Part shown: positions 21,873-36,800 of the stretch, one piece after another
Layout of the letters: each line of letters starts with the position of its first letter
Position numbering within the stretch: position 1 is the stretch's first letter
Virus record (IMG/VR): IMGVR_UViG_2609459854_000002
DNA length: 42,050 nt
Origin: a virus
Taxonomy: Duplodnaviria; Heunggongvirae; Uroviricota; Caudoviricetes
Direction: 5' to 3' (one strand)
Notes under the pieces: generated by a model
Database searches by the model: none
The model's input: only the letters and a program-made list of their open reading frames with translations
Told to the model about the DNA's origin: nothing
Position numbers and translations under genes: made by a program

Positions 21873-22120
21873 ATCAACCTCGTCTAGTTGTTCGTCATAG
21901 ATTCAGTGGCTGGCGGTGACGATTCCGCTTTTCGGGAGCTACCCTAGCCACTGTTTTATTCTATCCGATGTCTTTCCATCAGTCCGCCACCACAAAGAAT
22001 CTTTTTTGCCATAAGGCAGGAGGTTCATCTTTCAGTGGCTGCCAGTGTTATTTCCCCACTTACTGGCTTGGGTTGTTTCGCGGTACTGCCGTAATGCAAG
22101 AACTGGATTAACCTGCGAAA

Positions 22121-22996: not shown

Positions 22997-23455
22997 TCAT
23001 CGAAGGCATTGCGTCCTGATGTATTCCTGCAGGTAGTTAACCTGCGCGGTTATCCTGTCGATTCCACTTCGGAGACGGTAATAATTGAGTTCAGCATCTG
23101 CTGTAAGTCTTGGGCTTTCTCCATCGCCCATGCTGCTGGCTCCGGTCGTTGACTTTGCACAGGTGGCGGCGACTTGCAGGCGCTTACGACCAGCAGAAAC
23201 ATCAGCACGGAGACTTTCGATAGTCGCATTAGCATCAGCAAGCTCCTTTGTGTATCTGGCGTCAAGTTCTGCAACATCACGCTGACGCTGCTGCATGTCA
23301 GCGATGGTGGCGGTCGCCTGCTTCAGCTCACTGACTTTTTTATCACGCTGTTCTTTGTAGGCGATGGCGTTATCACGGTAATGATTAACACCCCATGACA
23401 GGCAGACGACGATGCAGATAACCAGAGCGGAGATAATCGCGGTTACTCTGTTCAT
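22997..23455 (-). CDS. Rz: Rz i-spanin
   Basis: [34 protein letters not shown]... closely matches lambda Rz as recalled; start placed at ATG adjacent to endolysin stop. Confidence 0.85.
23050..23229 (-). CDS. Rz1: Rz1 o-spanin lipoprotein (embedded in Rz, +1 frame)
   Basis: Embedded ORF with signal/lipobox-like [10 protein letters not shown] followed by Pro-rich segment [13 protein letters not shown]; start approximate. Confidence 0.7.
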
Positions 23456-23955
23456 TGCTGACCCCACAAACAGATTTCACGCTCAATCTCACGACGAGTC
23501 ATGAGACCTTTCCATTGCTTACCGCCAGCATATGTCCAGCGACGTAGCTGATCACATGCGCCTTTGATATCGCCCTGGTTTATTTTGCGAAGAAGCGTCG
23601 ATGTTCTGAAATTGCCAGCACCCACGTTGTAAACGAATGAGTAAAGAGCGCCGCGCATTGTTTCCGGTATATCGACTTTGATGTACGGGTTAATTTGTCT
23701 GGCGACCGTGGCAAGGTCTTTATTCAGGAGAGCTTTGCATTCTGCTTCGGTATACGTTTTACCGAGCATGATGTCTTTTCCTGTATGCCCGTAACATACA
23801 GTCCATACACCAACTATGTCTTTGTAAGGATTATGTCTCACACCTTCCAGACCATCGTTACCACTTGGGCCAGTGATTAACACAGATGCTATAGCAATAG
23901 CCCCGCCACTTATCGCCGCTATTACGCTATTTCGTAGTGCCGGTGACATTGCCAT
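23452..23955 (-). CDS. SAR endolysin (lysozyme, phage 21 R-like)
   Basis: N-terminal signal-anchor-release segment [19 protein letters not shown] and body ...[29 protein letters not shown]... match P21-type lysozyme as recalled. Confidence 0.85.
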
Positions 23956-24130
23956 TCAATCTGTCCTCGCGCTCTTTGCGCTTGTAGTACCAGTTGATGC
24001 CAAATGTGCCGACAGTACAAAGAATACCAATGATGACAGCCCAGTCATTCAGGGAGAGAATGCCACCCATCGCAGTCAGTCCTCCGAAGCTGTAACTGAA
24101 CCATTCTCTGATTTTGTCCATACGGTACAT
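23927..24130 (-). CDS. Holin (class II / pinholin-like) with possible dual start
   Basis: 67-aa ORF with two hydrophobic segments and a basic C-terminus; N-terminal MYRMDK offers two Met starts typical of holin/antiholin pairs; overlaps endolysin start. Confidence 0.75.
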
Positions 24131-24374
24131 GCTCTACCCCTTCATTGAGGGGATTTGCTCTATTTAATTAGGAATAAGGTCGATTACTGATAGAACAAAT
24201 CCAGGCTACTGTGTTTAGTAATCAGATTTGTTCGTGACCGATATGCACGGGCAAAACGGCATGAGGTTGTTAGCGCAACCTCCTGCCACCCGCTTTCACG
24301 AAGGTCATGTGTAGAAGGCCGCAGCATAACTATCACTGATGAATTCAGGATAGCCAGTGGCTACGGCTCAGTTA

Positions 24375-24450
24375 TGGTGCTGGTTAACGGACTTGAACCG
24401 CTACCCATTCGCTTACAAGGCGACTGCTCTACCATTGGAGCTAAACCAGC
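24375..24450 (-). tRNA. tRNA, anticodon UGU (Thr) by manual fold
   Basis: Minus-strand sequence GCTGGTTTAGCTCCAATGGTAGAGCAGTCGCCTTGTAAGCGAATGGGTAGCGGTTCAAGTCCGTTAACCAGCACCA folds as a cloverleaf with 7-bp acceptor stem, canonical D and T arms, encoded CCA. Anticodon call made by hand. Confidence 0.6.
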
Positions 24451-24455
24451 ATATT

Positions 24456-24530
24456 TGGCGGGACAGCGTGGACTCGAACCACGATAAGAAGGTTAACAGC
24501 CTTCCGTAATGACCTTTATACGACTGACCC
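24456..24530 (-). tRNA. tRNA, anticodon GUU (Asn) by manual fold
   Basis: Minus-strand sequence ending ...CGTGGTTCGAGTCCACGCTGTCCCGCCA with perfect anticodon stem GAAGG/CCTTC and loop CUGUUAA; one mismatch in acceptor stem and an imperfect D stem. Confidence 0.5.
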
Positions 24531-24534
24531 AAAT

Positions 24535-24575
24535 AAAAAAAGCCACCGTTGCAACTTAAGAGTCACTAACGGCAG
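24535..24575 (-). terminator. Candidate tR'-like terminator between the Q-like gene and the tRNAs
   Basis: Minus-strand hairpin (CCGTT ... AACGG with GC clamp, long loop) followed by TTTTTTTATTT; position is right for the late-leader terminator acted on by Q. Loop is unusually long. Confidence 0.35.
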
Positions 24576-24593
24576 CTTACCCTCTAATTATGG

Positions 24594-25112
24594 CTAAATG
24601 GCTAATTGCATGTCAAGGCTTTTAACAGCAACATGCTTAACTTTCTCAACACGTTTACGCATTTTAAAAGCATTTTGCATTGGTTGGTACAAAACAAATA
24701 ATGACGCTTTCAGGATATCGTCAATTTCGTTTCTACAGGTTGCCAGTGAAGGTTTTCTCCATCCCTCGCCACCGCGTCCACACATCTTGCGTGGCTTTGC
24801 AGTCGCGTGATAGTAGGATGCAATTGCTCTCTTAGATGAACCATGAGCGTAGTAGCTGAGGAGGATGCCAAAGGCTTTCTTGTCAATGTACATGACGGAA
24901 TCGACGACCTGAGAAATCAACATTCCATCATCATCATTGCACATTGGCCTTGTCATAACTCTTCCCGGCTCTACGCTCTCCATGAACTTCGCTATTACGC
25001 TGCTCATGCGCTTTTCAAGACGACCTGAATAAACCCATGCGCCCCACAGTTCAAGCCAGCCATTCAGCCACTCGTGCTGTTCTTTGGTGAGGTTTAGCTC
25101 TCTTATGCTCAT
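24594..25112 (-). CDS. Late-gene antiterminator, Q-like (phage 21/82-type family; tentative)
   Basis: 172-aa ORF directly upstream of the tRNA/lysis block and downstream of ninH, the position of Q; sequence not lambda-Q-like. Family call is mainly positional. Confidence 0.5.
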   Translation of the reverse strand: MSIRELNLTKEQHEWLNGWLELWGAWVYSGRLEKRMSSVIAKFMESVEPGRVMTRPMCNDDDGMLISQVVDSVMYIDKKAFGILLSYYAHGSSKRAIASYYHATAKPRKMCGRGGEGWRKPSLATCRNEIDDILKASLFVLYQPMQNAFKMRKRVEKVKHVAVKSLDMQLAI

Positions 25113-33685: not shown

Positions 33686-33742
33686 ATACCAATAACGCTT
33701 CACTCGAGGCGTTTTTAGTTATGCATAAATAAGGATCACACC

Positions 33743-33868
33743 ATGCAATATGCCATTGCAGGGTGGCCTGTTGCTGGCTGCCCTTCCGAATCTTTACTTG
33801 AACGAATCACCCGTAAATTACGTGACGGATGGAAAAGAGTTGAGGTCTTATTATGCGCAATGAAATAG
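33743..33868 (+). CDS. cIII: CIII-like protein (FtsH inhibitor), C-terminally divergent
   Basis: MQYAIAGWPVAGCPSESLLERITRKLRDGWKR matches the lambda CIII N-terminus as recalled; 41 codons, not in track because under 60 aa. Confidence 0.7.
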   Translation: MQYAIAGWPVAGCPSESLLERITRKLRDGWKRVEVLLCAMK

Positions 33869-34259: not shown

Positions 34260-34967
34260 ATGGATTTGAATAAATTCGATGAGCCATTCAGCCCTGAAGA
34301 TATCGAATGGCGAATACAGCAAAGCGGTAAAACACGCGATAGCAAGGTGTGGGCTATGGTGCTGGCTTATGTCACGAACCGGGCAATCATGAAGCGCCTG
34401 GACGATGTTTGCGGCAAAGCAGGATGGCGCAATGAATACCGCGATATTCCCAACAACGGCGGAGTTGAATGCGGCATATCAATCAAGATTGATTCCGAAT
34501 GGGTAACCAAATGGGATGCTGCTGAAAACACGCAGGTAGAAGCCGTCAAAGGCGGTCGTTCCGGTGCAATGAAGCGCGCTGCCGTTCAGTGGGGAATCGG
34601 TCGGTATCTGTATAACCTTGAGGAAGGTTTTGCACAAACATCTCTCGATAAAAAGCAGGGATGGCACAGGGCAAAACTGAAGGATGGAACAGGATTTTAC
34701 TGGCTCCCTCCATCGCTGCCGGGATGGGCAATCCCAGCATCAGATAACAAACCATCACCAGAAAATACCAACCAGAAATCTCCATCGGTTGACTGCGAAC
34801 AAATCCTGAAAGACTTCAGCGATTATGCGTCAACAGAAACTGACAAGAAAAAACTCATCGAGCGTTATCAGCGTGACTGGCAATTAATGGCTGGCAACGA
34901 GGAAGCGCAGGCTAAATGCGTTCAGGTAATGAACATCAGAGTTAACGAACTAAAACAGGCGGCATAA
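34260..34967 (+). CDS. Rad52-family single-strand annealing protein
   Basis: 235 aa; motif ...KRAAVQWGIGRYLYNLE... is characteristic of Rad52/Sak-type phage recombinases (from memory). Confidence 0.65.
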   Translation: MDLNKFDEPFSPEDIEWRIQQSGKTRDSKVWAMVLAYVTNRAIMKRLDDVCGKAGWRNEYRDIPNNGGVECGISIKIDSEWVTKWDAAENTQVEAVKGGRSGAMKRAAVQWGIGRYLYNLEEGFAQTSLDKKQGWHRAKLKDGTGFYWLPPSLPGWAIPASDNKPSPENTNQKSPSVDCEQILKDFSDYASTETDKKKLIERYQRDWQLMAGNEEAQAKCVQVMNIRVNELKQAA

Positions 34968-35441
34968 ATGGGAAGTAGAGGCGTAAATAAGGTGATCATT
35001 ATTGGTCGCCTTGGGCATGATCCAGAAATCAGATATTCACCATCAGGAACGGCATTTGCAAACCTTACAGTTGCTACGTCAGAACAATGGCGTGATAAGC
35101 AAACTGGAGAGCAAAAGGAGCAGACGGAGTGGCACCGTGTGGTAATGAGCGGGAAACTGGCAGAAATTGCCAGCGAATATCTGCGAAAAGGCTCTGAGGT
35201 TTATCTTGAAGGCAAATTGCGGACAAGAAAATGGCAGGATCAAAGCGGACAGGATAGGTTCACTACCGAAGTCATCGTGGGCGTTGGTGGAACCATGCAA
35301 ATGCTTGGTGGCAAGCAAGGAGGCAATGAACAGTCTTCACCTCAGCGAAATAACGGTCATCAACAAAGACAGCAACCTCAGCAGCATGGAAATCACAGCG
35401 AACCACCTATGAACTTCGACGATTCGGATATTCCGTTCTAG
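34968..35441 (+). CDS. ssb: Single-stranded DNA-binding protein
   Basis: OB-fold region near-identical to E. coli SSB as recalled and acidic tail ...[11 protein letters not shown]. Confidence 0.85.
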
Positions 35442-36503: not shown

Positions 36504-36800
36504 ATGCCAGCGCCTTTGTATGGTGAGGATGACGCGCGCCGCTGTTCCGGCAATTCCGTATCGGAGGTGCTGGATAAATTCAGAAAAAACTACGATCGGA
36601 TAATGTCGCTACCGCAGGAAACGAAAGAGGAAAAGGAATTTCGCCACTGTATATGGCTTGCAGAGAAAGAAGAACGCGAGCGAATTTACCAGACATCAAT
36701 CCGACCATTCCGCAAAGCCACATATACCCACTTCCCTGAATATATCGACCCGCGCCTGCGTAATTACCGCTCACGCTATGGCGCTATCAGTAATGACTGA
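36504..36800 (+). CDS. Hypothetical protein
   Basis: 98-codon ORF in early-left operon orientation. Confidence 0.4.

Follow-up and report, generated by a model that had tools for sequence, protein, structure and literature searches.

The DNA considered here, a stretch of 42,050 nucleotides (nt) from IMG/VR virus record IMGVR_UViG_2609459854_000002 (called the window below), carries exactly two tRNA genes as called by ARAGORN, both on the minus strand and both lying between a late antiterminator gene and the lysis genes. The first to be transcribed is tRNA-Asn with the anticodon GUU (24456..24530), and after a spacer of 5 nt it is followed by tRNA-Thr with the anticodon UGU (24375..24450), so that the plus-strand coordinates give the reverse order. 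The Rfam tRNA family RF00005, whose gathering score is 29, recognizes both of them, with 61.5 bits (E 4.6e-11) for tRNA-Thr and 55.3 bits (E 2.2e-09) for tRNA-Asn. Both genes encode their CCA ends, visible as tgg on the plus strand at 24375-24377 (Thr) and 24456-24458 (Asn). An initial annotation of this DNA had proposed two CCA-encoding tRNA genes on the late-operon strand at 24375-24530, with UGU and GUU as their anticodons; ARAGORN reproduced both the coordinates and the anticodons, and Rfam agrees. Judged by their sequences, both are real bacterial-type elongator tRNA genes.

Neither of the two cloverleaves is perfectly paired. In tRNA-Asn, U4 and U69 of the acceptor stem do not pair, nor do U13 and U22 at the inner, closing end of the D stem; these are the mismatched acceptor pair and imperfect D stem that had already been noticed in what was then called the second gene (it is the first in transcription). 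tRNA-Thr has a G27-A43 mismatch at the top of its anticodon stem, which had been missed. The anticodon loop, the T loop, G18G19, the discriminator base G73 and CCA are all intact in tRNA-Asn. The identity set of asparaginyl-tRNA synthetase (AsnRS) consists of G34, U35 and U36 together with G73, and that of the threonine enzyme consists of G1-C72, C2-G71, G35 and U36. All of these elements were found in the window tRNA-Asn and tRNA-Thr sequences, and charging of both is thus predicted, though only predicted. We also observed that position 14 of tRNA-Thr, nearly always A in tRNAs, is C; the 21 distinct relatives described below have C, U or G there, and A in no case.

The gene upstream of the pair (24594..25112, minus strand) encodes a Q-family late antiterminator of 172 amino acids (Pfam PF06530 Phage_antitermQ, E 1.1e-25; PHROG 943), with 85% amino-acid identity to the Q protein of phage 21. 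Its 3' end is overlapped by a sigma-70-type promoter of the pR' kind (24587..24616, minus strand), in which TTGACA and CATAAT are separated by an 18-nt spacer (11/12 matches in a consensus scan) and which aligns with the late promoter annotated in both Sf6 and phage 21. Between its -35 and -10 elements, at the putative Q-binding position, a direct 8-mer repeat, ATTAGCCA/TTTAGCCA, can be read from the sequence (24591..24606, minus strand). Sf6 has the same version of the repeat, and the Q-binding element (QBE) annotated at the aligned position of phage 21 is ATTGAGCA/AATGAGCA. Because the window Q is 85% identical to Q21 and the repeat differs, this comparison suggests that the two may constitute a Q/QBE pair of altered specificity relative to phage 21.

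The promoter is followed by the intrinsic terminator of the late leader, tR' (24535..24578, minus strand), made of a hairpin (24578-24542) and seven U (24541-24535), which ends 4 nt ahead of the first base of tRNA-Asn. The hairpin folds with -21.1 kcal/mol (z = -4.5, with 0/200 shuffles folding as well), and the whole element matches without a difference the terminator that is annotated in phage 21 under PMID 1704887. A simple terminator scan did not pick it up; folding and homology established it, and the candidate tR' that had been placed directly before the tRNAs is thereby confirmed. No promoter-like site was found between tR' and the tRNA genes in the promoter consensus scan, and their transcription should therefore need read-through of tR' by polymerase modified by Q or N. 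From lambda biology we infer that expression of the tRNAs would be Q-gated, or else would depend on N-modified polymerase coming from pR.

Directly 3' of tRNA-Thr there is a long stable hairpin (24318..24367, minus strand; -27.7 kcal/mol, z -5.2, 0/200 shuffles as good), which is the last part of the block common to the window and phage 21. The phage 21 copy of this hairpin runs into CTTCTTTTTTT, a T7 run (seven T), and is thus terminator-like, so that the tRNAs of phage 21 would be bracketed by a second terminator. Instead of this T-run, the window and Sf6 have some 150 nt of additional sequence with another hairpin and GUUUUG. In the window the latter structure (24247..24293, minus strand; -27.2 kcal/mol, z -2.8) lies within the 245-nt spacer before the holin gene, and at the corresponding place of phage L a terminator has been annotated. 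By analogy, the hairpin at 24318..24367 might be a terminator or a processing site. The lysis cassette begins with the holin gene (23927..24130; Pfam Phage_holin_2_3, E 4.4e-21) and continues with the genes for the endolysin, a phage lysozyme (23452..23955; Pfam PF00959, E 5.8e-48), and the Rz spanin (22997..23467; Pfam PF03245, E 8.4e-41), all on the minus strand. The slot to which the initial annotation had assigned the tRNAs, between a Q-like gene and the lysis cassette, is thus borne out by Pfam on both sides.

A late-leader cassette with Asn-GUU and Thr-UGU is already known, having been annotated since the sequences of phage 21 and Sf6. The Sf6 record (AF547987) contains the late promoter, qut, tR', tRNA-Asn and tRNA-Thr, with the remark 'similar to phage 21', and the phage 21 record (OL657228) contains pR', the Q-binding element, the start site, the terminator (PMID 1704887) and both tRNAs. 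The SfI genome paper likewise describes Asn(GUU) and Thr(UGU) genes lying in tandem behind Q, for SfI, Sf6, ST64T, PS3 and p21 (PMC3636060). The order of elements in the window (Q gene, pR', tR', Asn, 5-nt spacer, Thr, lysis genes) is that of phage 21, Sf6, SfI, BTP1 and HK446, with which it also shares the terminator and, at 100% identity, both tRNA genes; unlike phage 21, however, the window has about 150 nt more between tRNA-Thr and the holin gene, and another repeat at the Q position. A three-way alignment with Sf6 and phage 21 shows no difference within either tRNA gene (100% identity), and over the 156 nt of the tRNA pair the sole difference from phage 21 and Sf6 is one base of the spacer (24453). 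Identity to phage 21 and to Sf6 is 98.1% over the 268-nt block from 24578 to 24311, which holds tR', the two tRNAs and the 3' hairpin, while its flanks compared with those of phage 21 are 66% identical over 82 nt upstream and unrelated downstream (19%). Such sharp boundaries of identity argue that the cassette travels as a mosaic unit. It is also common, as a 321-nt segment matched 100 phage records and 997/5426 complete E. coli genomes (about 18%), the usual annotation of the matching segment being tRNA-Thr, tRNA-Asn and antiterminator Q.

The same slot may hold other tRNAs. In the Shiga toxin (Stx) phage 933W, ileZ-argN-argO follow Q, pR' and terminators and precede the late and toxin genes, and so the contrast with Ile/Arg tRNAs drawn in the initial annotation was a correct one. 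The 933W cluster is bracketed by terminator-like hairpins, as in the window, but it consists of different isoacceptors (Ile-AUA and Arg) and has a separate annotated tRNA promoter (pT), whereas none was seen in the window. Phage P1 has the same isoacceptors, Asn(GUU) and Thr(UGU), in the same order and 2 nt apart (L128, 625-778), but their identity to the window genes is 59% (Asn) and 83% (Thr) and their genomic context is another one. In Klebsiella lambdoid phages (Mulock; L127, 701-1020) the same cassette is expanded to Asn-Phe-Thr-Arg(UCU). As a separate observation, Salmonella phage L (L126, 781-852), ST64T and ST160 have a tRNA-Asn identical to that of the window, and their Thr slot is filled by a 72-nt tRNA-like sequence with the same acceptor ends and a different core, annotated as tRNA-Leu(TAA) and not called by ARAGORN.

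Relatives of the cassette were gathered by a D-arm pattern in species-representative genomes and viral contigs and then submitted to ARAGORN, which yields a sample rather than a census; the scan of genome contigs gave 19 loci, 8 of which were chance matches without a tRNA. Among the 137 related loci listed, 88 have Asn-Thr, 13 Asn alone, 6 Asn-Phe-Thr-Arg and 6 Asn-Gly, and ARAGORN found no Lys tRNA in any of these cassettes. Viral contigs were also scanned with a generic pattern for an Asn loop, a T loop and a Thr loop in tandem, and at least 120 loci matched, which were left out of the family analysis; the matches listed were mostly unrelated or P1-like pairs, with no close relative of the cassette among them. 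These unverified matches hint that tandem Asn-Thr pairing recurs widely in viral contigs.

For tRNA-Thr a function can be proposed on the basis of recent experimental work. Govande et al. 2025 (PMC12445682) showed that the Old nuclease of the P2 prophage (P2-OLD) kills by cutting the host tRNA-ThrU(UGU). It cleaves the anticodon stem behind the C of its paired CNG motifs, which occupy positions 28-30 and 40-42. Phage tRNA-Thr(UGU) genes, including that of phage 21 (tRNA-Thr21), rescue cells from P2-OLD; for tRNA-Thr21 to be resistant, the CNG motif has to be altered (C28U/G42A) and the anticodon stem has to be shortened as well (PMC12445682). In a related rescue tRNA, anticodon mutants lose protection, that is, decoding is required (PMC12445682). 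The tRNA-Thr gene annotated in phage 21 is identical to that of the window, which carries all the Thr21 features: the UGU anticodon, U28-A42 breaking CNG, and G27-A43 left unpaired. Its positions 28-30 and 40-42 read UCG and CGA, and those of host thrU read CUG and CAG with five pairs in the stem. With an anticodon arm that differs from that of host tRNA-ThrU in this way, the window tRNA-Thr would be expected to resist P2 Old. The window sequence thus appears to be one with experimentally shown anti-Old activity, by way of the identical phage 21 gene expressed from a plasmid. Old is set off by inactivation of RecBCD, as was shown with lambda Gam (PMC12445682). We note separately that the phage encodes the anti-RecBCD protein Abc2, which may bear on its carriage of an Old-resistant tRNA.

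For tRNA-Asn a similar role may be envisaged. The AriB nuclease of PARIS cuts between positions 40 and 41 and recognizes U36-A-A-U-C (Belukhina et al. 2025, PMC12409363). It targets Lys(UUU) first, with Thr(UGU) second and Asn(GUU) third; PARIS is neutralized when the T5 counterparts of these three are combined, and the Lys tRNA is required for this (PMC12409363). In the kinetic experiments on OLD, tRNA-Asn(GUU) was one comparison substrate beside ThrU (PMC12445682). Host asnT combines the paired CGG/CCG with UAAUCC, and window tRNA-Asn, with AAG/CUU and UAACCU, is devoid of both motifs. Positions 36-41 read UAAGCG in window Thr and UAACCU in window Asn, as compared to UAAUCA and UAAUCC, respectively, in the host. 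T5 Thr and T5 Asn (PMC11464382, PMC12409363) resemble the window copies in having U39 replaced, beside the cut site between 40 and 41; they differ in that they are unrelated to them in sequence (62-66% identity) and come from a large tRNA array and not from a set of two. A likely, albeit unproven, role of tRNA-Asn is that of another nuclease-insensitive spare, replacing a secondary target of the Toprim tRNases. No paper linking a lambdoid tRNA-Asn to a nuclease was found in a literature search. Motif avoidance was also considered as statistical support for counter-defence and was set aside as weak: the phage tRNAs differ from those of the host throughout, so the missing motifs say little by themselves, and several relatives keep them.

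The mechanism that we propose is as follows. Polymerase would start at pR' and would normally halt at tR', 4 nt before tRNA-Asn, and only polymerase modified by Q, or N-modified polymerase from pR, would read through. The resulting transcript would contain Asn, the 5-nt spacer, Thr, the holin, endolysin and Rz genes and then the structural genes, and host RNase P and 3' processing enzymes would presumably release the tRNAs from it. tRNA-Thr(UGU) would decode ACA and take the place of the host tRNA-ThrU destroyed by P2 Old, while tRNA-Asn(GUU) might be a nuclease-insensitive spare for a secondary target of P2 Old and PARIS AriB. At the same time, both would serve the codon usage of the phage, which is ACA-rich and somewhat Asn-rich. 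Taken together, we regard it as probable that these are two functional phage tRNAs in a known, Q-gated cassette, with Thr as an Old-resistant replacement, Asn most likely acting likewise, and both also serving codon usage.

Several facts weigh against this interpretation. The rescue by tRNA-Thr21 was obtained from a plasmid with an E. coli promoter and was partial, giving small colonies (PMC12445682), whereas the window gene sits behind tR' in a P22-like genome. Here, the tRNAs would be made only after antitermination, perhaps late relative to Old activation, and Abc2 as an Old trigger is a conjecture by analogy with Gam. The efficiency with which OLD cuts tRNA-Asn is not stated in the accessible text of that study (PMC12445682). 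Overall identity to the host isoacceptors is only 72% for window Thr and 63% for window Asn, so that particular differences in the anticodon arm are among many. A paired CNG (CAG/CUG) persists in the Klebsiella-type Asn, and the host anticodon arm is found in one relative (L207); P1, for its part, keeps UAAUCA in Asn and the paired CNG (CUG/CAG) in Thr. ARAGORN found no tRNA-Lys(UUU) in the window; since evasion of PARIS requires it, the pair alone should not defeat PARIS. Finally, decay variants of tRNA-Asn are scattered among the relatives, namely G1-A72 (C72A) in the SPN9CC type (L130), and U54C and a +G insertion in the 3' acceptor strand in E. coli FHI_NMBU_03 and Z1323CEC0019 (L272 and L273).

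The initial annotation had suggested a comparison of the anticodons with codon usage. Codons were counted in 37 open reading frames taken as phage genes and in a 49-kb sample of K-12 as the host. ACA amounts to 15.8 per 1000 codons in the phage genes (31% of Thr codons), as compared to 3.8 per 1000 in ribosomal and elongation factor genes and 9.4 in other genes of the K-12 sample. Asn codons amount to 49.5 per 1000 in the phage overall and 53 in its late genes, as compared to 33 (ribosomal and elongation factor genes) and 42 (other genes) in the sample. ACA is thus clearly enriched (2-4 times) and Asn modestly so, relative to this small 49-kb sample.

On one hand, these numbers might be taken to mean that the pair does nothing but supplement codons, with no role in nuclease evasion, especially as the tRNAs are co-transcribed with the late genes that use 53 Asn codons per 1000, and the same ACA bias was seen in SfI (PMC3636060). 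On the other hand, the authors of that study saw no bias for Asn and wrote that the significance of the Asn gene 'is not clear' (PMC3636060), and in our counts as well the Asn excess is modest. A second difficulty concerns supply. E. coli has several tRNA-Asn genes, and supply of this tRNA is therefore unlikely to be limiting. Furthermore, codon supply leaves the Old-resistance features of the Thr arm unexplained: U28-A42 and the G27-A43 mismatch, which is invariant in 21/21 distinct relatives of tRNA-Thr, a set with 94.6% pairing and compensatory changes in 4 pairs. Nor does it account for the rescue from P2-OLD by phage 21 tRNA-Thr, the gene of which is identical to that of the window (PMC12445682). 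Pure codon supplementation is thus possible, but we doubt it. It should be added that it does not exclude nuclease evasion, and the two roles are compatible, because an ACA-rich phage would be especially exposed to loss of the single ACA-reading host tRNA.

Our preferred interpretation, in which both tRNAs replace nuclease targets and also serve codon usage, can be carried further. The pair might be a dedicated two-tRNA counter-defence module of temperate lambdoid/P22-like phages against Toprim anticodon-stem nucleases such as P2 Old and its relatives, with Thr replacing the primary target and Asn a secondary one that limits recovery. In this scenario, the conserved oddities of tRNA-Asn (U4-U69, U13-U22, an altered D loop, and an anticodon stem without CNG or UAAU) would be adaptations for evasion rather than decay, and tR' together with the downstream hairpin would gate supply to the Q-dependent late phase. 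We put this forward as a tentative extension, which we think less likely than not.

A narrower idea is that the pair is specifically an anti-PARIS device, which like the T5 tRNAs would replace two targets of AriB, Thr(UGU) and Asn(GUU). Both are indeed AriB targets along with Lys(UUU), the T5 trio does neutralize PARIS (PMC12409363), and both window tRNAs are without U39 of UAAUC and without U16 in the D loop. Nevertheless, a resistant Lys(UUU) is required for such an effect (PMC12409363) and it is found neither in the window nor in the 137 related cassettes listed; moreover, we did not find in the literature any test of window-type tRNAs with AriB. We thus consider this explanation unlikely.

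The initial annotation had also raised the possibility that the gene with the mismatches is weakly functional or degenerate, in which case tRNA-Asn would be a decaying pseudo-tRNA carried along with a functional Thr. Apart from U4-U69 and U13-U22, one could cite in its favor the Rfam score, which is lower than that of Thr, the G1-A72 of SPN9CC-type copies, the doubt of the SfI authors about the significance of the gene (PMC3636060), and the fact that the Prokaryotic Genome Annotation Pipeline (PGAP) misses the gene after one extra change (U54C or the +G insertion). The last of these also implies that the cassette is under-annotated in some genomes. Conservation, however, speaks strongly against decay. 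The exact window tRNA-Asn is the commonest sequence (72 loci among the matches listed), being shared by phages 21, Sf6 and most relatives. Across 38 distinct tRNA-Asn sequences 92% of cloverleaf cells are paired and 15/21 pairs have changed on both sides, as compared to only 34-50% pairing in controls in which the partners were slid by 1-3 columns. Position 4:69 is unpaired throughout the enterobacterial clade (23/38 distinct sequences), and U4-U69 is kept in Klebsiella-type and Mixta-type lineages that have compensatory changes at the neighboring 5:68, 6:67 and 7:66, which indicates that the mismatch arose long ago and has been kept, rather than being recent decay; in distant relatives this position is U-A, U-G or C-G. 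The relatives were selected by a pattern that includes the D arm, and this set is therefore uninformative on the conservation of U13-U22. In a Morganella tRNA-Asn, pair counting gave G2-U and an A3-C mismatch, and a reading of its pair 3:70 as compensatory was rejected. Among the matches listed, 13 loci keep Asn without Thr, the reverse of what hitch-hiking would predict, and the anticodon loop, T loop, G18G19, CCA and the AsnRS identity set, G73 included, are intact in the window copy. Although no experiment on the tRNA-Asn of this cassette was found in the literature, its conservation points to a tRNA that is functional, and decay seems very improbable.

Least plausible of all, to the point that we give it hardly any weight, is the idea that the tRNA sequences are mainly RNA-processing or stability signals, or a recombination-prone module boundary, and not decoders: the block from 24578 to 24311 does behave as a mosaic unit (98.1% identical to phage 21, with flanks of 66% and 19%), and cleavage by RNase P would make a new 5' end on the lysis mRNA, but anticodons, identity elements and CCA are conserved though processing signals need none of them, and the function of Thr21 depends on decoding, as seen from the loss of protection in anticodon mutants of a related rescue tRNA (PMC12445682).

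The locus itself adds nothing new, and for the tRNA-Thr of phage 21, identical to that of the window, function was shown in 2025. What is sharpened is the question of the role of the partner tRNA-Asn, within a segment carried by about 18% of complete E. coli genomes. If it is true that Asn is a second resistant spare, then small temperate phages, and not only large lytic ones with tRNA arrays, would counter tRNA-cutting defences, which are carried by rival prophages and satellites.

As a whole, the window is a mosaic P22-like E. coli phage or prophage, and the phages closest to it are Dewey, Louie, Bas106 and IME10. Its plus strand carries an N-like gene, a full-length match to the lambda cIII thermoregulator element (33730-33788; RF01804, 80 bits), which fixes the orientation of the early-left operon on this strand, and the early-left genes for an Erf-like annealing protein (34260-34967), SSB (34968-35441) and the anti-RecBCD protein Abc2 (36504-36800; Pfam PF11043, E 2.9e-60). 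A match to the int-alpA RNA (21892-21954, minus strand; RF02996, 42 bits against a threshold of 35.8) was also seen, between the lysis region, with a KilA-N open reading frame, and the terminase genes.

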